A DNA stretch of 64,000 nt, taken from assembly GCA_016873735.1 (NCBI GenBank), contig VGWD01000003.1, forward strand, positions 36,207 through 100,206. Reading direction: 5' to 3'. The notes below the pieces were generated by a model. That model saw nothing but the letters and a program-made list of their open reading frames with translations, did not search any database and was not told the origin of the DNA. The translations under genes and the position numbers were made by a program. The stretch comes from Ignavibacteria bacterium. GTDB lineage: Bacteria; Bacteroidota; Ignavibacteria; Kapaibacteriales; UBA961. Below are positions 1,765 to 54,352 of this stretch, in pieces. The first letter of the stretch is position 1, and the number at the start of each line of letters is the position of its first letter.

Positions 1765-2637
1765 TCAGAATTTCATTAATGGAAAATATCCAACATCGTT
1801 AACTACTTTCTGACCGCCTTTATCTATAACCCAATCTATGAATTCTTTCATTTGACCTTGGGGCTTGTCTTTGATGTAAAAGAATAAAAAACGAGAAATG
1901 GGGTATTTTCCTGAAAGGATATTTTCTTCTTTTGGAAAGTAATATGTTTTGTTTTCATCAAGCGCAACAGGTACTTCCTTTACTCCCACGGTATAAGCTG
2001 CTCCACCATATCCAATTCCCCATCTATCCATTGCAACTGCCCCAACTACTGCTGATGTCCCCGGCATATGTTGAGCAGTTGATGCAAAATCCTTTTTAGA
2101 AAGTACATGTTCTTTGAAAAACTCATATGTACCTGAATTGTTTTCTCGCGAGTATAGAATTATGTTGTGATCAGCACCACCTAATTGCTTCCAATTCTTG
2201 ATTTTGCCGGAGAAAATTTCCTTTAATTGCTTCAGGGTTATTTTCGAAATGGGATTGTCTTTATGCACATATATGCTGATACCATCTCTTGCTACTCTTA
2301 TCTCGACGGGTACGCGACCAAATTTTTCTTTCATTTGCGCAATTTCTGCCGGCTTCATTGGACGACTCGAGGAGCAAATGTCGGTAGTTCCATTAATCAA
2401 TGCAGCAATGCCAGTCCCGGATCCACCTCCAGTAACTTGAAATGAAACATTTTTAGTTGGGTACAATTCAGTCCAACGTTGAACCAAAATCACCATTGTA
2501 TCCGAACCTTTGATGGTCAAGGTAGATTGCTGGACAGCTGCTCCCATCAAAAAAAACATGCTGAAGATTGCTATCGAGGGGAAAAATCGCATAATGTTCA
2601 TTGAAGAAAAAAAAGTCATCAAATTTACTGTATTCAA
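1765..2637 (-). CDS. pstS: phosphate-binding periplasmic protein PstS
   Basis: Signal peptide, then motifs typical of the PstS family (GGGSGTGIAALINGTTDI, SSRPMK, NNSGTYEFF). The start may be one of several in-frame Met between 2592 and 2637. Confidence 0.85.
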   Translation of the reverse strand: MNTVNLMTFFSSMNIMRFFPSIAIFSMFFLMGAAVQQSTLTIKGSDTMVILVQRWTELYPTKNVSFQVTGGGSGTGIAALINGTTDICSSSRPMKPAEIAQMKEKFGRVPVEIRVARDGISIYVHKDNPISKITLKQLKEIFSGKIKNWKQLGGADHNIILYSRENNSGTYEFFKEHVLSKKDFASTAQHMPGTSAVVGAVAMDRWGIGYGGAAYTVGVKEVPVALDENKTYYFPKEENILSGKYPISRFLFFYIKDKPQGQMKEFIDWVIDKGGQKVVNDVGYFPLMKF

Positions 2638-2671
2638 ATGTGTATGAGGAGAGATCCAATGTTATGATTTC

Positions 2672-5600
2672 TTAATATAGACTTAAGTTATTGAAAATAT
2701 ATGGCTTTGTGTTTCCGTTTTTAGGAAATGTTAATACATATATGCCTTCTTGAAGATTATCCAATGAAAGTGAAGAACATGGAGAATCATTCAACATTCC
2801 CTGCTGAACCGTTCTTCCTGAAATATCTATGATGGAATAAGCCAAAGAATTACCTGCATGTACAATGATTAAGGAATTCCCCACTTGGTTCACGAGCGGT
2901 CTTTCATGTTCTTTGATTGATGCTACATTCCCTATGGTAAACGTGCGTATACCGGATGGTTCTGAATCACCGGCGGAATTTATTCCATAGACTCTCCAAT
3001 AATATCGTTTGCCGGTTCTTAATGCTGTTGAACCGGTGAATACTCCTGCAGGTATCATGGAACGTGAGAAGGTCAATGATGAAAATGTTGGAAACTCAGA
3101 TACTTCTATGCGAGAAAATACTGTTCCAATTGCAGTTTGCCATTGATATCGAATGAGAGTTGATTGTGAATTTGTGTCTTGCGAAGGATGGATGAGTATA
3201 GGTGAAGACACTTTTGAAGGAAGTGTATGAACTGAACCTGTAAACACACCTGCACCATGCGTGGCAATTGCCATATATCCATCAGAGATGCGATAATCCA
3301 ACATGGTGACAACAGCATTTCCTATTGAGTTCTGTCCTTCCTGTTGCCAACATGTAGCCATTCCTTGTAATGAGCCGGTTGAAAACAATCCAATACTGGT
3401 CCCAACATATACTTTAAAGCCCTGTTCAATGGGTACAATTTCTGCCCATCTGCATGATGGTCCTGCGCCTGAACCGGCTTGATTATCTTCAAGATTTCCA
3501 GCGATTGGAGTCCATTGCTCACCGCCATTCGAAGAATGAAACAATGAAATCACATTATAATTACTGAATACAGCAATGATTGACCTGGCATCTCTTGGAT
3601 CTATTGCAATACATTGAATGGTGCCATTTGAAAAACCAGATCCTGTGATATTCTTTGGAGTTGGATTACCTTGATGTGCTTGTTCAATCACAAAGAGATT
3701 ACCTTTATTCGTTCCATAATAAACCATATGTGCAGGGTTTCGTGATGCGGAAACGGCAGTTATAAGCTCTCCATCGGGTAAACGAGTTGCGGAAAGACTA
3801 TCCCAATTCACATTTGTTGAATCCCATCTATTCATGGGTATTGTAGAAAGATCATTGTTCCTCCATAATATGCTGCCTCCAGCAAGGTACATAATCTGTT
3901 CATTTTCCGGGTCTAGAATGAATGGATTGATGAACAGATAGTCTTTTCCTCCGATCGGATCTATCCGTCCCCGTTCAAGAATTGTTCCTGATTCATCGAG
4001 CTTCATGGCTACAACTCTGCCAAGTTGTGCCGACATAAAATATCGTGAGGCATTCTTTGCAATTGCACAAAATGCTCCATCATAAGTCAATGGCATTGTC
4101 CAAGGATTCAATGGATCCTTTCCTTGAGTGAAATAAGTCCCATTGTCCTGCAGTCCTCCAATGATCGTCTTCTTATGCTGTTCACCATGATCTATGGCGA
4201 TTGTATAAAATTGTGAAGTGATATATGAAGTATTGCAATCACTCCACACTGTTTTTCCTTCTAAGCAATTGTCTGTTATTTGTATTCCGCCATCATTGAA
4301 GGATATTGCTTTCAATGGATTTGACGGAAGAAACAATAGACCATGTTGATCAGGATGTTGTGAAGGATAAGTATCAAAATATGGCGTCATTGTACCGGGT
4401 TTATATCCGCCTATCCACTCAGTATTGACAGAGTCTACAAATCCTGATCTTGAACGATACAGATTTGTGCCACCTACAAAAATGGTATTGGTGTCCAAGG
4501 GGTGAACCTCGATCACAAGATCATAACCTGACTGCGTAATAAGATCACCAAAATGTCCGCCAAGTGTTGGGAGATTTACTGATCTATTTTCCCATGATCC
4601 GCCTGCGGAAGATCCATCTCCGGAAACATACTGATATTTCCAAAGGCTATTCCACTCTATGTCTCCTCTGAAATTTCTTGATTGTTTACCGCTGTTTGGA
4701 GTGTAACCGAAGAAATAGACTTGTCGTTCATCTTTGGGATTGACTCCAATTGCGATTTTGTAATATTGTTCTGGAAATCCAGTGGGTGTGATATTTGTCC
4801 ATTTTACTCCATCAATCGAACGCCAAATCCCTTTTACTTTGGAGATTGCTCCTCCCCCACCTATTTGACTCATTGTTGCATATACTATGCCTGTTGGAGT
4901 TATGGTAATGTCGGAAAACAATGATGATTGATTTCCAAGACTGCCCAAGACCGTTCGAAATGATTTGCCTCCATCGGTTGATCGTAGAATACCTCCTAAG
5001 GCAGTTGCAACATACAGTTCATCTTGTTGAAGATTGGAATAATCTTGTGCAATCTTGTTTACAAATTCAAATGATCCATCCCATGTTTGTGGTGTTTTGG
5101 ATTGTGTTGCAGAAAGCAAATTCCAGGATTCTCCATTATCTGAACTATGATAGATTCCATCACCGTTCAAATCCGATGAATTGCCATAAAATTCTCCGGT
5201 ACCTGCATACCAAGTGTTTTCTTTGCCCGGTCTCTTATCTTGAATGATGCAGGTAATACTCTGTAATTGATCATTCCTTAGTGTTTTCCTCCAGGACTTC
5301 CCTTGATCTGTAGATTTAAAAATACCGCTTGATACTCCTGCAGCTATGATGGTGTTTTCATCACGTATGTCCAAGTGTAATGCTCTTGTTCTTCCCCCCA
5401 CATTATTTGGTCCGGCAAATGTCCATTGATCATCATTTGCGACTTTGAAGTCATTAGTCACTTCAGAAGTATGAAATCGTTGCGCAAATGCCAATTCATC
5501 GGCTCTACTATGATGTGGGATTATGCCTGTTTTTGGATCGGCGAGCAACATATTCATATATAATTCTCTTGGACCAATATCCATTCCTTTCATAGGTGCA

Positions 5601-40160: not shown

Positions 40161-41802
40161 TTACATTGATTCGGGTGATGAAATTCCTAAAATTGTTAAT
40201 CCATTGTTCATGACCGTTTTTGTCAATAATGCTAAATGCACTCTAGATGACAATACGGTATGCTCAGATCCGAGAATTCTGCAATCATGGTAAAAAGAAT
40301 GAAATGCAGATGCGACTTCTCGTAAATATTCAGCCAACATTTGTGGTTCAAGATGATGAGCAGCTCTCATGGTGACTTCTTCAAATCTTGTCAATGCACC
40401 AATCAACGTTATTTCTGAAGGATGAGTCAAAGTCGAAAGATCCGGTTGTTCAAGAACATACAGATCATGATCATGTACTTGTTGCAAAAGCGAGCATATT
40501 CTTGCATGAACATATTGCAAATAATACACGGGATTTTTATCATTTTGCTCTCGTGCTATTTGAAGATCAAATTCCAATTGGGTTTGAGCACCGCGCATGA
40601 TAGAAAAATCTGACGACATCAGCTCCGACCTCATCTATGAGTTCATCAAGTGTGTAACTCTTGCCTGATCTCTTGGACATTTTGACTTGTACGCCATTAT
40701 CCCACAGCATCACAAATTGATAAATAAGAACTTTGAGCTTCGAAACATCATAGCCAAGGGCTTGTATTCCTGCTTTTACATCGGGAATGGTCGCGATATG
40801 GTCTGCGCCGAAGATATCGACTATCAAGTCATACCCTCTTTCGAATTTCGTACGATGATATGCAATGTCCGGTAAACGATATGTTGGTTCACCGGTACTT
40901 TTCACGATGACTCTGTCTGTGAGTGATTCATCTATTGAAGAGAATCTCATCCATGTTGCACCATCTTTCTCATAAGAAAGATCTTTTTCTATCAATTCAC
41001 TCAAAAGCGATGTTATGGTGCCATCTGTAAACAAGGAGTCTTCATTGAAATATGTATCCTGATGGATATTCATTTTTTTCAATGTTTCTAGAATTGATGA
41101 GAAACACCATTTCTCACCCATTTTTTTGCAAGTTTCAATATGCTCCTGATGTTCATCTGCTAATTGTTTTCCGTGAAGATCAAATGCTTGTTGAGCGATG
41201 TCTGTAATATAATCACCATGATATCCATCTTCGGGAAATGGGTATGTTGTATCACCTATCAAATGTCTATATCGAGCATAGATTGATGCTGCTAATAAAT
41301 TCATTTGATTGCCGGCATTATTGAAATAATATTCGCGAGTAACCGTATACCCGGACCACTCCAAAAGATTGGCCACAGTATCGCCGATAGCTGCATTTCT
41401 TCCATGACCAAGATGCAATTTTCCGGTTGGATTGGCACTTACATATTCAACAATTGCAGTTTTACCAGAGCCGACCATTGTTTTTCCCAATGATTCCTTT
41501 TTATTCATCATCATTTGCATTGCTTGATGAAAGGCTTTGGGTTGATATGTTACATTTATGAAACCTGCACCTGCTATTTCCACAGATTGTACCAAGTTTG
41601 AATCATATGCTACTTGAGACAATAACTCTTTTGCTATGTCCAGTGGTTTTTTCTTTAATTGTTTTGCAAGGACCATGGCAATATTGGTTGAAACATGACC
41701 ATGCTCTGCAACTTTGGGTCTTTCAAATGCAATTGATTGGTGTTCAATACCCATTGCATCAAGAGCTTGTTGAAAGGAAGCTTCGATGAATGTATGCATC
41801 AT
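40161..41802 (-). pseudogene. argS: arginyl-tRNA synthetase interrupted by a single-base frameshift in an A5/T5 homopolymer (either pseudogene or sequencing error)
   Basis: ORF 40567..41802 carries the class I HIGH region (HLGHGRNAAIGD) and KMSKS (MSKRSG) and stops after ...VVRFFYHARCSNPIGI. ORF 40161..40634 is the DALR anticodon-binding domain (YYLQYVHARICSLL). Removing one T from the TTTTT run (plus-strand AAAAA at 40604-40608) joins them as ...VVRFSIMRGAQTQLEFDL..., which matches ArgRS. Confidence 0.8.
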
Positions 41803-49061: not shown

Positions 49062-52000
49062 ATGTATCAACCCTTACCTGAAAAACTACATTATCCCGAG
49101 TTGGAAAAGGAACTCCTTGCCTTTTGGGACGAGCGCGGAATTTTCGAGAAAACGCTTTCAGCGCGGAAAGATTCACCTGTCTTTAGTTTTTTCGAGGGCC
49201 CACCAACAGTCAATGGTAATCCCGGTATTCATCATTTAATGGCAAGAACTGATAAAGACCTTGTTTGTCGTTACAAAACGATGACAAATCATTATGTACG
49301 TCGCCAAGCCGGATGGGATACTCATGGTTTACCCGTCGAAATTGCAGTTGAAAAACAATTAGGCCTTGTTAACAAATCAGAAATCGAAGTCATGGGTATT
49401 GATAAATTCAATGCCACTTGCAGAGACTTTGTTTACAGCAATATAGAAAGAGACATGGGTTGGGGTGAGTTTACCAAGCGGATGGGTTATTGGGTGGACA
49501 TGAAAACTGCTTATGTAACATGCACCAATGAATATGTTGAGTCCGTCTGGTGGGCATTGAAGTCTTTTTTTGATAAAGGGCTTATTTACAAGGGCTACAA
49601 AGTTGTTCCACAATCTCCTACAATTGAAACCCCATTGAGTTCGCATGAACTCTCTTTGGGCTATCGAGAAGTAAAAGATCCTAGTGTCTATTTAAAACTT
49701 TCCATTTTGCATTCACCAATTCCTGAATTGGTCAATGCTTCAATCTTGGTGTGGACAACAACCCCGTGGACGCTTTTTTCAAATGTTGCCCTTGCTATAG
49801 GCGAAGATATCGACTATGTGCTTGCCGAATCGAAACATGCAGATAACGAACCTGCATATTATGTCATAGCTCAATCATTGCAGGGTTTACTTGGTGAAGG
49901 AATTATGATCTTAAAGACATTTAAGGGGAAAGACATAATAGGATCAACGTATGAACAGATATTCCCTTATTGCCAGATAGACAAAATTCTTCATCCGAAT
50001 GCTTTGACAATTCTGCCGGGTACATTTGTGTCAACCGAAGACGGTACAGGGGTAGTTCATATATCCCCTGCCTTTGGTGTAGATGACTTTGAATTGGCGA
50101 AGAAATACGACTTACCGGTCTTGCAGCCTGTTACTCCAAATGGACATTTTACTGATGAAATAACTCCATTTGCGGGTAGGGCTATCAAAACCTTTAAGTA
50201 TGCAGATCATGTTGAAGAAGGTTCCGACAAAGACATCATCATAGCATTAAAGACAGCAAAAAAGATTTATAAATCATCATTTGATTATGTGCACAGTTAT
50301 CCCCATTGTTGGCGCACAGACAATCCTGTGATGTATTATGCGAGAAATTCCTGGTTCATAAAGTCTCCTTCTTATAAGCAGTCAATGATTGATCTGAATA
50401 TGACAATACATTGGCAACCACAGGAAATTGGTACCGGTCGTTTCGGAAATTGGTTGGAAGAAGTAAAGGATTGGTCGCTCAGCAGAGACAGATATTGGGG
50501 TACTCCTTTGCCTATTTGGGTTAGTGAAGACAAAGAAGACATGTTTGCCATTGGATCGATCGAGGAATTGTCAAAGGGAGAGTATGAATGCCCCGATGGT
50601 TATTTTGTCCCTGTCCCGGAAGCCCCTTTGCCTTTGGATTTACATAGACCCTTTGTTGATAATGTAATTTTCAGAAAAAATGGCAAAGTGTATCGTAGAA
50701 CAACAGAAGTCATTGATGTTTGGTTTGATTCAGGATGTGTGCCTTTTGCGCAATTTCATTATCCATTCGAAAATGTAGAACTTTTCTCATCTCAATTTCC
50801 TGCGGATTTCATATCCGAAGGTATTGATCAAACCAGAGGTTGGTTTTACACACTTCACAATATAGCAACAGCATTATTCGAAAAGCCGGCTTTCAAAAGC
50901 ATCATCGTTAATGAACTTGTTTTGGATAAAAACGGCCTGAAAATGTCAAAAAGTAGGGGCAATACTGTTGATCCGTTTCAGATGATGGATCTATATGGTG
51001 CAGATGCGGTTCGTTGGTATTTCATGGTGAATAATCCACCTTGGAGGCCAACATTGTTCAATGAAACAGACATCGCAAAGACAGTGATTGCTGACTTTTT
51101 TCGAACATTGACCAATACCTACTCCTTTTATGCTCTTTATGCCAATATCGATCAAATTGATGGAAATGAGGGAGTAATTCCACATAATGAACGACCTGAG
51201 ATTGACAAATGGATCATTTCCAGAGTACATACCGTGCTTCGTCAATTTCATCAGTATATGGAGGCATATGATGTATTCAGAGCTTGCAGAATTGTTCAAG
51301 AATTCATGATAAATGATGTTTCGAATTGGTATGTGAGAAGAAATCGGAGAAGATTTTGGAAGGGTGAAAAGGATAGCGATAAACTCGCAGCCTATCAAAC
51401 TTTGCGTGATGTGCTGATTCATGTCTTGTCCATGATGGCACCTGCGGCGCCATTTTTACCAGAAGTTTTATTCAGAAGGTTGAGAGTTAATTCCGATGTT
51501 GAATCAATTCACATGAGACTCCTATCCCCTGGTGACTTGTCTTTGATAGATGTCGATTTTGAAAGAAGAATGTCATTGGCTCAAACAATCGTATTCTTGG
51601 CCAGATCACTTCGTGAAAAATCAAAAATCAAGACGCGTCAGCCACTTCGAAGAATACTTATTCCGGTGATTTCTCCTCAACAAAGAAGAGATATTCAAGC
51701 AGTTGAATCCATCATCAAAGATGAGATCAACATTAAAGAAGTAGAGTATGTAAGTGAAGAAGCAGGTATCGTAAAAAGGTCTGTAAAAGCCAATTTCAAG
51801 GCATTGGGCAAGAGATTTGGTAAACAAACTCAAACCGTTGCTACCATCATATCCACTTTGAGTGAGCAACAAATCAAGTCCCTGATTCAAGATCAAACAC
51901 TACCCATTTCTCTTGATGGAGTAGATCAGCTGATCAATTTGGATGAAGTAGATGTCATGACTCAAGACATGGAAGGTTGGCTTGTCGCAAATGAAGGATC

Positions 52001-52301
52001 ATTAACTGTAGCGCTTGATACAGAAATTGATGAATCTTTGAAACAAGAAGGCATAGCACGCGAATTTGTAAATAGAATTCAGAACCTCAGAAAGAGTATC
52101 GGACTACATGTAACAGATAGAGTAAATGTAAAATTTTCTGCATCAAAAGAAATTTGTGATGCAATTATCAAATTATCTGATTATGTTTGTAATGAAATTT
52201 TGTGCACAAGTTGTGAATATGTAGAACATATAGCTGAAGATGTTCACACACTTGAAATCGAACAAGACATCATTCTAGTCAACATCACAAAGTTTCATTG
52301 A
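49062..52301 (+). CDS. ileS: isoleucyl-tRNA synthetase (long, type 2-like form)
   Basis: Class I HIGH-region context (PPTVNGNPGIHHLMART), KMSKS (LKMSKSRGN), and the editing-domain and anticodon-binding organisation of IleRS. 1079 aa. Confidence 0.9.
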   Translation: MYQPLPEKLHYPELEKELLAFWDERGIFEKTLSARKDSPVFSFFEGPPTVNGNPGIHHLMARTDKDLVCRYKTMTNHYVRRQAGWDTHGLPVEIAVEKQLGLVNKSEIEVMGIDKFNATCRDFVYSNIERDMGWGEFTKRMGYWVDMKTAYVTCTNEYVESVWWALKSFFDKGLIYKGYKVVPQSPTIETPLSSHELSLGYREVKDPSVYLKLSILHSPIPELVNASILVWTTTPWTLFSNVALAIGEDIDYVLAESKHADNEPAYYVIAQSLQGLLGEGIMILKTFKGKDIIGSTYEQIFPYCQIDKILHPNALTILPGTFVSTEDGTGVVHISPAFGVDDFELAKKYDLPVLQPVTPNGHFTDEITPFAGRAIKTFKYADHVEEGSDKDIIIALKTAKKIYKSSFDYVHSYPHCWRTDNPVMYYARNSWFIKSPSYKQSMIDLNMTIHWQPQEIGTGRFGNWLEEVKDWSLSRDRYWGTPLPIWVSEDKEDMFAIGSIEELSKGEYECPDGYFVPVPEAPLPLDLHRPFVDNVIFRKNGKVYRRTTEVIDVWFDSGCVPFAQFHYPFENVELFSSQFPADFISEGIDQTRGWFYTLHNIATALFEKPAFKSIIVNELVLDKNGLKMSKSRGNTVDPFQMMDLYGADAVRWYFMVNNPPWRPTLFNETDIAKTVIADFFRTLTNTYSFYALYANIDQIDGNEGVIPHNERPEIDKWIISRVHTVLRQFHQYMEAYDVFRACRIVQEFMINDVSNWYVRRNRRRFWKGEKDSDKLAAYQTLRDVLIHVLSMMAPAAPFLPEVLFRRLRVNSDVESIHMRLLSPGDLSLIDVDFERRMSLAQTIVFLARSLREKSKIKTRQPLRRILIPVISPQQRRDIQAVESIIKDEINIKEVEYVSEEAGIVKRSVKANFKALGKRFGKQTQTVATIISTLSEQQIKSLIQDQTLPISLDGVDQLINLDEVDVMTQDMEGWLVANEGSLTVALDTEIDESLKQEGIAREFVNRIQNLRKSIGLHVTDRVNVKFSASKEICDAIIKLSDYVCNEILCTSCEYVEHIAEDVHTLEIEQDIILVNITKFH

Positions 52302-52368
52302 TAACAGAAAAAATAAATGCATCCCGCATTTAGTTTTGTTTTGTTTTATTATTTAAGGTGTATGCTGT

Positions 52369-52710
52369 ATGGCCTCAACTAAGAAACCCGCAGCTAAGAA
52401 AGCGGCTAAGAAAGCGGCTAAGCCAGCGGCTAAGAAAGCAGCTAAGCCAGCTGCTAAGAAAGCGGCTAAGCCAGCTGCTAAGAAAGCGGCTAAGCCAGCT
52501 GCTAAGAAAGCGGCTAAGCCAGCTGCCAAGAAAGCAGCTAGACCGGCTGCAAAGAAAGCTGCGAAAAAAGCAGCAAAACCGGCAGCAAGAAAAGCAGCTA
52601 AGCCGGCAGCAAAGAAAGTAGCGGCAAAACCGGCGGCTAAGAAAGCTAAGCCGGCAGCAAGAAAAGCAGCAAGACCGGCAGCTAAGAAAGCTGCCGTAAA
52701 AAAAAAGTAA
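52369..52710 (+). CDS. histone H1-like / nucleoid-associated Lys-Ala repeat protein
   Basis: 113 aa made almost entirely of AAKKAAKP-type octapeptide repeats. It ends AAVKKK-stop inside an A9 run. Confidence 0.65.
   Translation: MASTKKPAAKKAAKKAAKPAAKKAAKPAAKKAAKPAAKKAAKPAAKKAAKPAAKKAARPAAKKAAKKAAKPAARKAAKPAAKKVAAKPAAKKAKPAARKAARPAAKKAAVKKK
52390..52700 (+). repeat. 24-nt tandem repeat array (gctgctaagaaagcggctaagcca-like units) encoding the AAKKAAKP repeats
   Basis: At least three units are identical at DNA level (about 52446-52517). Flanking units become progressively more diverged towards 52700. Confidence 0.6.
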
Positions 52711-53018
52711 GTCCCAGTAAAGGACCGAAAACTGCTAAAGTCACAACCAAGAAGCAGATAAAGACTTCGCCAAAAACAATAGTCAGCAAGTCTCCTGTTT
52801 CAACTAAAAAGGTTGCGAAGTCATCTTCGGCGGCTGGTTCAGCCAAAGCCGGAAAAAAACAAGCGAAGCCAGTTGTTAAGAGTGCCAAGCCGGTATCTCC
52901 GAAGCGATCGGCTTCGCTTTCTGTTTCAAAGAGAGAAAAAGTCACATCAAAGTCACCTGTCACCACAACTACAAAAGCTACGGTCAAGCCCAATAAGGCT
53001 GCTGATCAAAAGAGCATT

Positions 53019-53753
53019 ATGCCCCAAAAAGAAAAAACAAATTCAAAATCAGCAAAGAATGTAAAGTCGGATGATACAAAGAAAGGCAAAGCAGACCAAC
53101 CAGAAGTAGTGCCTAGACCGGATGAGCCAATCATAGATTTGGGCATTCCAATGCCCCCTCTTCAATTGAATCTTCAAGAGAAGAAGCCGGCTGGTAGATC
53201 TAAATCAGGGAACAAGGCTTCTGAAAAACCAACGGCTGCAGGTCTTGAGGCGATGAAAATGCCAGAAGGAAAAGGAGCAGCTGCTTTTGCAATGAGACCT
53301 AAAGAGGAAAAACCAATAATCATCCCATCCAAAAAGAAGGTTCGTTATTCAGACACCGATCTTAAAATGTTCAAGCAACATATATTGAGGATCAAAGAAG
53401 ATGCTTTTGACGAAATGCGGATGCTCAGAGAACGTTTGGAGGATCTTACAAATGCAGAGTTGGCTTCTGAAACAATGATATATTCTGTGCATATGGCTGA
53501 ACAAGGTTCAGAAGCATTGGAAAAAGAAAAGACATATGCTCAAATGAACAGAATCATTGACTATATCAAGAAACTCGACGATGCTTTAAAGCGCATTGAT
53601 GACAAAACATATGGCATTTGCAAAGAATGTAATATTCTGATTGCGAAGGCTCGTCTGCTTGCTGTTCCAATTACGACTCAATCGGCATCATTTAAGATTC
53701 ATGGAAGATGTCCTGCAAATGGCGTTGATATTATTTCCGGTAGAAATGAATGA
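53019..53753 (+). CDS. DksA/TraR-family C4-type zinc-finger protein (conservative ATG start; the reading frame is open and H1-tail-like from 52707)
   Basis: C-terminal coiled-coil plus DksA/TraR-like finger region (DDALKRIDDKTYGICKECNILIAKARLL). The ileS - DksA-like - lspA order echoes Bacteroidota synteny. There is no ATG/GTG/TTG in frame between 52707 and 53019, although that stretch reads as SPKK-rich protein. Confidence 0.65.
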   Translation: MPQKEKTNSKSAKNVKSDDTKKGKADQPEVVPRPDEPIIDLGIPMPPLQLNLQEKKPAGRSKSGNKASEKPTAAGLEAMKMPEGKGAAAFAMRPKEEKPIIIPSKKKVRYSDTDLKMFKQHILRIKEDAFDEMRMLRERLEDLTNAELASETMIYSVHMAEQGSEALEKEKTYAQMNRIIDYIKKLDDALKRIDDKTYGICKECNILIAKARLLAVPITTQSASFKIHGRCPANGVDIISGRNE

Positions 53754-54352
53754 TTCGGCAGTCCACATCGGGGCAAACAACACCATATCTTGTAGTCGCT
53801 TTTGTACTTGTTCTCATTGATCAGATCACAAAGGTAGCTGTTAAGGGATATAATCTTTTTGGTTTTCGCCATGAAGGCATGCATTTGGGCGAGAGTTTCC
53901 CTGTTTTCGGAGAAATTGTTCGCATAACTTTTGTTGAAAATCCAGGCATGGCTTTTGGGGTTGAGTTTGGATCCGGTAAAATAGCTTTAACGCTATTTTC
54001 ATTGCTTGCTTCATTTGCTTTGGTGTATTATCTCAGAGTAATCAGTAATGCCAATAGATGGATTCGTATTGCAATAATGCTTATCCTCGCTGGCGCATTC
54101 GGAAATTTTATTGATCGAATGTTCTATGGTGTTCTATATGATGAGGGACCTCTATTCTATGGATTAGTGGTGGATTTTATACAAATCGACATACCCGATA
54201 CCACAATAGGAGCTTTGACCTATACTCATTGGCCAGTATTTAATGTTGCAGATTCATGTGTAACTTTCGGCATGATATTGCTGATATTGTTCAATAAGCA
54301 TCTACCCTATCCATTTACGGCTAAATCGCCAAATTTAGAAATCAAGGAGTAA
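53750..54352 (+). CDS. lspA: lipoprotein signal peptidase (signal peptidase II)
   Basis: LspA conserved boxes FVENPGMAFGV, NFIDRMFYG and FNVADSCVTFGMILLIL. ATGA overlap with the upstream stop. Confidence 0.85.
   Translation: MIRQSTSGQTTPYLVVAFVLVLIDQITKVAVKGYNLFGFRHEGMHLGESFPVFGEIVRITFVENPGMAFGVEFGSGKIALTLFSLLASFALVYYLRVISNANRWIRIAIMLILAGAFGNFIDRMFYGVLYDEGPLFYGLVVDFIQIDIPDTTIGALTYTHWPVFNVADSCVTFGMILLILFNKHLPYPFTAKSPNLEIKE

Follow-up and report, generated by a model that had tools for sequence, protein, structure and literature searches.

A conserved poly-A run as a probable recoding site between histone H1-like and DksA-like reading frames in Kapabacteria

The window analyzed here, i.e., a whole stretch of 64,000 nucleotides of contig VGWD01000003.1 (coordinates are window positions unless another locus is named), contains a short histone H1-like open reading frame (ORF) that stops at a run of nine A residues (A9), from which the -1 frame continues into a DksA-like domain. 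We conclude that the H1-like and DksA-like ORFs are probably one recoded gene, encoding a 113-amino acid protein and a 461-amino acid -1 fusion, and that the A9 run is most likely a conserved recoding site rather than a sequencing error; both conclusions were drawn from comparative sequence analysis. Standard decoding would yield the 113-amino acid Lys/Ala-rich protein, its stop codon lying directly behind the A9 run. In a fraction of cases, expression would shift to the -1 frame at the run, giving a 461-amino acid protein with an H1-like N-terminus of the DNA-binding type, a disordered basic linker of ~210 amino acids, and a DksA-like domain, a type that enters the secondary channel of RNA polymerase. 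By analogy with Streptomyces DdbA, the fusion would tether a DksA-like factor to the nucleoid. The features concerned are:

52369 to 52710, + strand: H1-like zero-frame ORF, with an ATG start and (AAKKAAKP)n repeats, 113 amino acids, stop TAA at 52708-52710
52698 to 52706, + strand: slippery A9 run, invariant in 35 independent contigs of the clade
52707 to 53336, + strand: -1-frame linker, rich in Lys, Ser, Thr and Pro and predicted to be disordered (trans-frame residues 1-210)
53019 to 53021, + strand: ATG, the first canonical -1-frame start past the run and the listed start of a 244-amino acid ORF product
53337 to 53753, + strand: DksA/TraR-like domain, with a coiled-coil hairpin, a CxxC motif at 53619-53630, a third invariant Cys, and the stop TGA at 53751-53753

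The product of the H1-like ORF is 92% Lys, Ala and Pro and had no match in Pfam or NCBIfam, so that "H1-like" is a compositional label only. As stated in the original prediction, a reading of this DNA made from its letters alone, the ORF ends as gta aaa aaa aag TAA within the A9 run, with A_AAA_AAG in phase. Two overlapping heptamers of the X_XXY_YYZ form are in fact present in the zero frame, i.e., A_AAA_AAA (52698-52704) and A_AAA_AAG (52701-52707), and the same phase is found in the A10 clade described below. The -1 frame has stops throughout the repeat region and is open from 52686 to 53753. Counted from 52707 it comprises 348 codons (...KKK VSPSKGPKTAK...), the first 104 of which, again as predicted, include no ATG, GTG or TTG, the ATG at 53019 (MPQKEK) being codon 105. 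The fusion would therefore have 113 + 348 = 461 amino acids, with its junction at ...AAVKKK/VSPSKGPK...; the junction sequence of the predicted trans-frame product is ...AAVKKKVSPSKGPK....

The run and its frame relation are conserved across Kapabacteria

Homologs of the DksA-like protein belong to Candidatus Kapaibacteriota. The close homologs (68-91% identity) have been called as proteins of 288-336 amino acids, with three shorter ones of 214-256; they span 87-94% of the 348-amino acid -1-frame translation and begin at differing TTG, GTG or ATG codons within the linker. None of the 32 close protein clusters contained a fused protein of ~460 amino acids. When the DNA of three close homologs was retrieved from Logan/ENA assemblies, all had the identical junction gccgtaaaaaaaaagtaagtcc, an upstream H1-like ORF of 130-131 amino acids, and a -1 frame that was open straight from the run. 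A scan of metagenome collections with the pattern GCCGTAAAAAAAN{1,5}GTAAGTCC, permitting run lengths of 8-12, gave A9 in 23 of 23 relevant contigs; two more matches carry A7GG and are unrelated. Altogether, exactly A9, out of frame, was present in 35 independent contigs (23 metagenome contigs, 7 from Logan/ENA, and 5 species genomes), the sources being JGI, ENA, Logan and NCBI metagenome-assembled genomes. The orthologous H1-like ORFs of this A9 clade share the start MASTKKPAAKK and the end AAVKKK; they vary from 113 to 170 amino acids by whole repeats, while the junction is constant.

These data bear directly on the reading favored by the original prediction, i.e., a homopolymer undercall of A9 for A10, which would make the locus a single, ordinary fused gene. 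That reading took support from a frameshift beside a T5 run in argS, elsewhere in the window, which is genuinely present and indicates that the assembly may hold indel errors, but it has no bearing on the A9 site. With A9 in all 35 contigs, no other length from the scan that permitted 8-12, no fused protein in the close clusters, and the same -1 configuration kept in a second clade with A10, the probability that an error in sequencing or assembly explains the site is close to nil.

The wider comparison covered 75 species-level Kapabacteria loci with the DksA-like domain motif, 34 of which have the split arrangement (A9 in 5, A10 in 28, and A11 in 1). Their upstream Lys/Ala-rich ORFs, 42-168 amino acids long where the contig reaches the start, all end in an A9-A11 run inside the overlap, with the DksA frame always at -1 and the zero-frame stop 0-3 codons past the run. 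Put the other way, every locus with a separate Lys/Ala-rich upstream ORF has both the run and the -1 overlap. The single A11 arose by a G>A substitution that left the frame relation unchanged, and a G follows the run throughout the A9 clade and in nearly all A10 species. An alignment of orthologs had been proposed as a check on the original prediction, and it shows the A run and nearby stop to be conserved and the two modules to be out of frame in the 34 split species.

Codon usage provides a second line of evidence. The genomes of the A10 clade are GC-richer, and ~90% of their Lys codons outside the run are AAG; the run itself reads GCA AAA AAA AAA in 25 of 25 loci tested, the preceding Ala codon always being GCA. 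Because the run is all-A despite ~90% AAG elsewhere, it is held by selection against codon preference. Runs of 9-10 A residues are hot spots for DNA indels. No in-frame variant was found at this indel-prone tract, which argues that the out-of-frame state is kept by selection; the lack of in-frame revertants in 34 species and ~30 contigs suggests that the out-of-frame state is itself favored.

Homopolymer tracts of 9-11 nucleotides are also typical of phase variation, and one could envisage a contingency locus at which changes in DNA tract length switch the fusion on and off, or else a decaying pseudogene. However, tract length was not polymorphic in either clade, and an in-frame (ON) allele was absent, although consensus assemblies could hide minor variants. 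In addition, the single A11 came about by substitution with the frame relation kept, and 80/60/241 changes at the three codon positions indicate strong purifying selection on the downstream domain. We regard this explanation as very unlikely.

In a neighbor-joining tree of the domain, calculated without support values, the A10/A11 loci formed one clade and the A9 loci another, the latter beside a group of three single-ORF loci (L014-L016). Since the A9 and A10 clades do not group, the recoding device may have arisen twice; because the tree has no support values, one origin with loss and two origins are both possible.

The sister group L014-L016 (about 2905-3417) encodes a DksA-like protein of 165 amino acids in a single ORF starting MASTKK or MAATKK, with an in-frame A7-A8 run at codons 4-7. 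Its N-terminus is that of the H1-like ORF, and it has a similar leader with AAGGT(G), resembling a Shine-Dalgarno (SD) sequence. Because start and leader are shared, the H1-like start codon looks ancestral for the DksA-like gene. Forty-odd Kapabacteria relatives likewise have the DksA-like domain behind a Lys-rich N-terminus in a single ORF, and one of them (P0073) passes both Pfam HC2 (histone H1-like) and zf-dksA_traR. A Lys-rich N-terminus ahead of a predicted DksA-like domain is the norm for this family, and the description of this architecture, and of its position between ileS and lspA, as unusual is not supported, the same combination also being known for DdbA.

A further relative, L066, has a single open frame of 505 codons (1908-3426) in which a very large N-terminus of TAKKPA repeats is in frame with the DksA-like domain. 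There is no ATG, GTG or TTG in its first 311 codons, and its start is likely to be ATT (AAT ATT GCT AAA GCA...). Non-canonical initiation may be another way of keeping a fused protein at a low level.

If the single-ORF state is ancestral, the split could be a tolerated "saviour" frameshift: an old 1-nucleotide poly-A indel would have divided an H1-DksA gene, slippage would restore enough of the full-length protein, and the short product would have no selected role of its own. The MASTKK start of the sister group and the many single-ORF relatives fit this view, and disrupted ORFs restored at 9A/9T runs have been published (PMC1088944). Nevertheless, one indel would revert such a change, yet 34 species and ~30 contigs stay out of frame; the arrangement occurs in two clades that do not group on the tree; and the zero-frame ORF keeps its start, leader and stop position, varying by whole repeats only. 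We therefore consider it doubtful that the frameshift is only tolerated.

The linker between the run and the DksA-like domain

Past the run, the first ATG, GTG or TTG is reached after 7-104 codons, and its alignment column is not the same among close relatives; only 11 of the 23 distinct A9-clade sequences have an ATG at the column of 53019. The window and two relatives (L090 and L110) have no canonical start for 104 codons, a stretch with 89-91% protein identity to relatives and with the conserved motifs KKQAKP and SASLSVS. Over 42 distinct sequences, the stretch from the run to the first possible start amounts to 1601 codons, with 0 stops in the DksA frame, compared with 78 and 108 in the other two frames. 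The argument is not circular, since a Lys/Ala-rich upstream ORF never occurs without the open link. Run and domain are 741-777 nucleotides apart in the A9 clade and 407-707 in the A10 clade, with the frame always kept, and in-frame indels occur in the linker upstream of any start codon. Immediately after the run there is codon variation of a synonymous kind, with Pro as CCC, CCA or CCT and Ser alternating between AGT and TCT. Minimum substitutions at the three codon positions of the linker were 83/84/112 in the A9 clade (before the Met at 53019) and 30/33/49 in an A10 subclade, compared with the 80/60/241 of the domain. Linker changes are in excess at the third position, and on these counts the linker is a weakly constrained, disordered coding region. 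Together with the stop count and the frame-keeping indels, this indicates that coding begins at the run rather than at a start codon.

Some of these observations weigh against a fusion as the sole source of the DksA-like domain. The third-position bias in the linker is modest, which we attribute to its being a fast-evolving disordered region. Most relatives have some GTG, TTG or ATG in the linker, and the window has the ATG at 53019, so that a shorter, independently initiated DksA-like protein may coexist with the fusion as a third product. Taken further, there could simply be two separate genes, the DksA-like protein starting at the ATG at 53019 or at a non-canonical codon such as the ATA at 52758, in which case neither the run nor the frame open back to it would have a part in decoding. 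In favor of this, gene callers list separate genes in all relatives, most of which have internal start codons; L088 and L096 carry ATG at linker codon 18, where the window has ATA; and the apparent ATT start of L066 indicates that unusual starts occur in the family. However, no start position is conserved, the start-free 104 codons of the window, L090 and L110 are conserved, the stop count is 0 in 1601 pre-start codons, and indels upstream of any start keep the frame. Separate genes would also give no reason for a run kept against codon bias in 29 species. Finally, the SD-like AAGGTG precedes the H1-like ATG, at 52355-52360 (8 nucleotides upstream), whereas none was noticed ahead of the ATG at 53019. 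The original prediction had named an own start codon and stops in the linker as what would point to separate genes; we found neither a conserved start nor a stop, and consider two separate genes improbable.

The linker contains one further feature and a second conserved island.

52900 to 52926, + strand: terminator-like hairpin CGAAGC-GATCG-GCTTCG followed by a T-rich tail, CTTTCTGTTT, inside the linker

The fold at 52900-52926 was not significant (z -1.2). A 20-nucleotide sequence, TCGGCTTCGCTTTCTGTTTC, shows virtually no variation among 23 distinct sequences, and this extends to every synonymous site of Ser/Ala/Ser/Leu/Ser/Val, which suggests constraint at the nucleotide level (an attenuator, a binding site or other). 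The second conserved island, which includes an A7 run, lies ~135-180 nucleotides past the A9 run (roughly 52842-52886). A candidate internal promoter of the Bacteroidota type, TAnnTTTG at 53134, was rejected, the motif not being enriched in the window.

Route of the shift and RNA structures flanking the run

The original prediction invoked dnaX-type ribosomal frameshifting. Recoding into the 113- and ~460- (461-) amino acid products has gained comparative support; as to its route, slippage by RNA polymerase fits a run of 9-11 A residues with a hairpin adjacent on its 5' side at least as well as the ribosomal mechanism does. Because both routes would give the identical 461-amino acid protein, sequence analysis cannot separate them. 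Assuming that recoding occurs, we lean towards RNA polymerase slippage as the most likely route, the remaining share going to the ribosomal route or to both together. Slippage would add one A on the run of 9-11, helped in the A9 clade by a hairpin in the nascent RNA 1 nucleotide upstream; the alternative or additional route would be -1 ribosomal shifting or sliding on A_AAA_AAA / A_AAA_AAG.

Bacterial RNA polymerase slips efficiently in vivo on A/T runs of 9 nucleotides (PMC5009743; PMC1088944), and every run in the 34 split loci is at least 9 nucleotides long (A9 in the window, A9-A11 in 34 of 34). Baranov et al. (2005) took conserved overlapping ORFs with a conserved 9A run as a sign of slippage (PMC1088944), and here overlap and run are conserved among non-identical homologs. 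Two structures flank the run:

52676 to 52696, + strand: RNA hairpin CGGCAGCU-AAGAA-AGCUGCCG, 8 base pairs, ending 1 nucleotide upstream of the A run
52711 to 52725, + strand: small hairpin GUCC-N7-GGAC, 4 nucleotides past the run, with a conserved stem and a variable loop

The upstream hairpin has a predicted stability of -14.6 kcal/mol (z = -6.45), matched by 0 of 200 shuffled sequences, and was kept in each of the 11 A9-clade sequences tested, at -9.5 to -14.6 kcal/mol. An equally stable fold is reached, on average, by only ~8% of windows in the same ORF. A hairpin immediately 5' of the motif enables slippage in Roseiflexus IS630 (PMC5009743), where it is GC-rich as here (52676-52696, then U, then A9). 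In that case, however, the gene belongs to a mobile element and the motif is U5C5 with loss of one C, whereas here the gene is chromosomal, an A run would gain one base, and the hairpin is without covariation support.

Several observations count against our preferred explanation. The hairpins show no compensatory double changes, the variants of the upstream one being a G.U pair or an A.A mismatch, and GCNGCN Ala codons make chance hairpins easy. The upstream structure of the A10 clade was not above background (z -0.8). In favor of the ribosome are the same codon phase of the run in both clades, with an adjacent stop; the conserved 3' flank, including 28 nucleotides that are nearly invariant in one A10 subclade; and a hairpin immediately behind the run in 20 of 23 A10-clade loci (mean z -1.6). 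There is also an in-frame A10 at 1730-1739 in another gene of the window, so that long A runs are not strictly avoided in it. This A10 (- strand, TCA AAA AAA AAA CGA; MPEFLSKKKRSKK...) forms codons 6-9 of a 383-amino acid ORF, 605-1756, and is the only other A/T run of at least 9 in the window; if RNA polymerase readily slips on A10 here, some mRNA of that ORF would be out of frame. A9 runs were not significantly depleted in the window (2 loci against ~5 matches expected).

The 28 nucleotides just mentioned (GCCAAGTAAGGGTAACTCCTAACTCGGC; for example L033, 2735-2762) lie past the A10 run in 13 species, where they form a three-part hairpin around the zero-frame stop. In other A10 lineages the sequences differ but likewise fold directly past the run (GAGCT...AGCTC, GCAGCC...GGCTGC). 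Covariation in the subclade cannot be judged, the 28 nucleotides being nearly invariant, and RNAalifold on 24 A10-clade sequences gave no consensus pairs, the alignment being too heterogeneous. Rfam yielded nothing near a gathering score. A terminator on the minus strand (the small hairpin and the A9 run read, in reverse complement, as a hairpin followed by T9) was rejected, there being no minus-strand gene to terminate and a stem of only 4-5 base pairs.

A purely ribosomal route, i.e., dnaX-type -1 frameshifting or poly-A sliding in which tRNA-Lys, aided by the neighboring stop codon and the 3' sequence, slips on homogeneous A9 mRNA, is possible but appears to us the less probable. In its favor are heptamers that both clades have in correct phase with the zero frame, the zero-frame stop 0-3 codons past the run, the conserved 3' flank (45 nucleotides in the A9 clade, in addition to the 28 of the A10 subclade), and the hairpins directly after the run in the A10 clade, in which AAA is moreover a rare Lys codon. 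Stimulators of -1 frameshifting usually lie 5-9 nucleotides 3' of the heptamer. The run-to-structure spacing here is 0-4 nucleotides, below that range, and the 3' structure of the A9 clade is just 4 base pairs, weak (-4.2 to -5.8 kcal/mol, z ~ -0.9) and not significant alone. All runs are at least 9 nucleotides although 7 would suffice, and the strongest structure lies on the 5' side, a position from which it would affect RNA polymerase instead of the ribosome. E. coli ribosomes do slide on iterated AAA codons (PMC4363877), but 9-A runs would be expected to slip in transcription anyway.

Known systems offer precedents for either route. E. coli dnaX is a cellular gene with the identical in-phase A_AAA_AAG and two products with a common N-terminus; it has a strong 3' stem-loop 6 nucleotides downstream and an upstream SD-like stimulator, whereas the 3' hairpin here is 4 base pairs and not significant, and in dnaX the shifted product is the short one. 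The single tRNA-Lys of E. coli explains the shiftiness of A_AAA_AAG (PMC5009743). In Thermus thermophilus dnaX, slippage on a 9-nucleotide A/T run gives mixed mRNAs and two proteins (PMC5009743). This too is a cellular, non-mobile gene with a 9-nucleotide homopolymer and two products with a common N-terminus, but it belongs to a different gene family, and its zero frame gives the long product, which slippage truncates; at the window site, where slippage is inferred, the zero frame is short and the shift would give the long product. Closer in outcome are Shigella spa13 and mxiE, in which homopolymer slippage adds a longer C-terminal extension to a short upstream ORF in a fraction of products. 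These are plasmid-borne virulence genes, whereas the conservation here is far wider (34 species, two clades).

RNA polymerase slippage rises when the next nucleoside triphosphate is scarce, and the A run could thus be a tunable sensor instead of a device with a fixed ratio, although we regard this as a long shot. A fall in guanosine triphosphate in the stringent response would then enlarge the share of A+1 transcripts, converting an abundant free nucleoid protein to a nucleoid-tethered, DksA-like regulator of RNA polymerase. We rejected autoregulation, i.e., control of the slippage by DksA itself, as precedent does not support it: E. coli DksA has no effect on slippage at lacI-A9 (PMC4666387).

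The DksA-like domain, its setting and its significance

The DksA/TraR-like domain claimed for the -1 frame was recovered by profile search, an AlphaFold2 model and Foldseek alike. Scores of the window protein were below the cut-offs for Pfam zf-dksA_traR (PF01258; 21.6-23.2 bits, cut-off 24.9) and for NCBIfam yteA (58.5, cut-off 134.4) and dksA (TIGR02420; 40.6, cut-off 115.5). However, a profile of 27 homologs matched Chlamydia DksA (6ptg, E=1.4e-9) and also Agrobacterium and E. coli DksA in the PDB, and the relative P0073 passes the Pfam model at 25.4 bits, so that homology to DksA is supported despite the sub-threshold scores. In the AlphaFold2 model, residues 1-210 are disordered and are followed by helices at 216-253 and 266-298 and a small finger region, with a block-mean predicted local distance difference test score of up to 93 on the helices. 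The best Foldseek matches were Pseudomonas aeruginosa DksA2 (4ijj; template modeling score 0.76, target-normalized) and E. coli DksA (1tjl, 5vsw, 7khi), and matches included DksA chains bound to RNA polymerase. The modeled fold is of the DksA type, i.e., a coiled coil with a C-terminal finger globule. It departs from the canonical protein in two respects. The invariant Cys residues are C305, C308 and C335 only (trans-frame numbering), with no second CxxC to make a four-Cys finger. In place of an acidic DxxDxA tip there is HMAEQGSE, invariant in 27 sequences and resembling the segment HQADQGTD of Chlamydia DksA in the PDB profile alignment.

The closest known counterpart of the predicted fusion is Streptomyces DdbA, with an H1-like N-terminus and a DksA-like C-terminus, whose N-terminal domain binds and condenses DNA (PMC3643593). 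S. coelicolor DdbA (SCO2075) has the same two-domain design, but in a single ORF without recoding and with a canonical C4 finger and DxxD tip residues, whereas the protein here has CxxC plus one further invariant Cys, the HMAEQGSE tip, and the ~210-amino acid linker. Both modules are present in the window and would be joined in one polypeptide only if recoding occurs. Presumably SCO2075 also lies between ileS and lsp.

The genes and leader flanking the two ORFs are:

49062 to 52301: ileS, directly before the H1-like ORF
52302 to 52368, + strand: leader between ileS and the H1-like ORF, 67 nucleotides, nearly invariant across the A9 clade
53750 to 54352, + strand: lspA, its ATG at 53750 forming an ATGA overlap with the DksA-like stop TGA

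The order ileS, H1-like ORF, DksA-like ORF, lspA, and a gene for a pseudouridine synthase of the PseudoU_synth_2 family is also found in relatives. Among 15 distinct A9-clade sequences this 67-nucleotide region hardly differs, at a protein identity of only 68-91%, and it is probably a promoter plus a structured or regulated leader. It includes TAGTTTTG at 52331-52338, which we take to fit the Bacteroidota -7 promoter consensus, although TAnnTTTG (at 52331 and 53134) was not enriched in the window and is thus uninformative. The only tRNA gene in the window is that for tRNA-Thr. On the - strand, argS (40161-41802) is split into a 411-amino acid ORF (Arg_tRNA_synt_N and the catalytic domain) and a 157-amino acid ORF (DALR_1), which overlap at 40567-40634 with the frame change by the T5 run (aga ttt ttc tat cat gcg, ~40600-40612). 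One extra T or two missing bases could explain the split, either as an assembly error or as a real lesion in an essential gene.

To our knowledge, conserved programmed frameshift or slippage sites in bacterial genes that are neither mobile nor phage-borne are few, the main ones being dnaX, prfB and copA. In the literature searched, we found no report of recoding in a DksA-family gene or in Kapabacteria, nor of this site, and DksA and histone are both absent from the main text of the GeneTack survey. Events of this kind are well known, as is the two-domain architecture from DdbA; this site would be a further case, with unusually broad comparative support. At least 34 Kapabacteria species have the locus annotated as a pair of genes, the DksA-like part being given arbitrary GTG/TTG starts, and ~100 conserved residues are unannotated in the window. 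The A9 clade, with its 5' hairpin, and the A10 clade, with its 3' hairpin, offer a natural system in which to compare slippage with ribosomal shifting. If our reading is correct, one gene would provide a basic, histone-like protein both on its own and fused to an RNA polymerase factor of the DksA type, and the recoding ratio would directly set the amount of a nucleoid-tethered transcription regulator.

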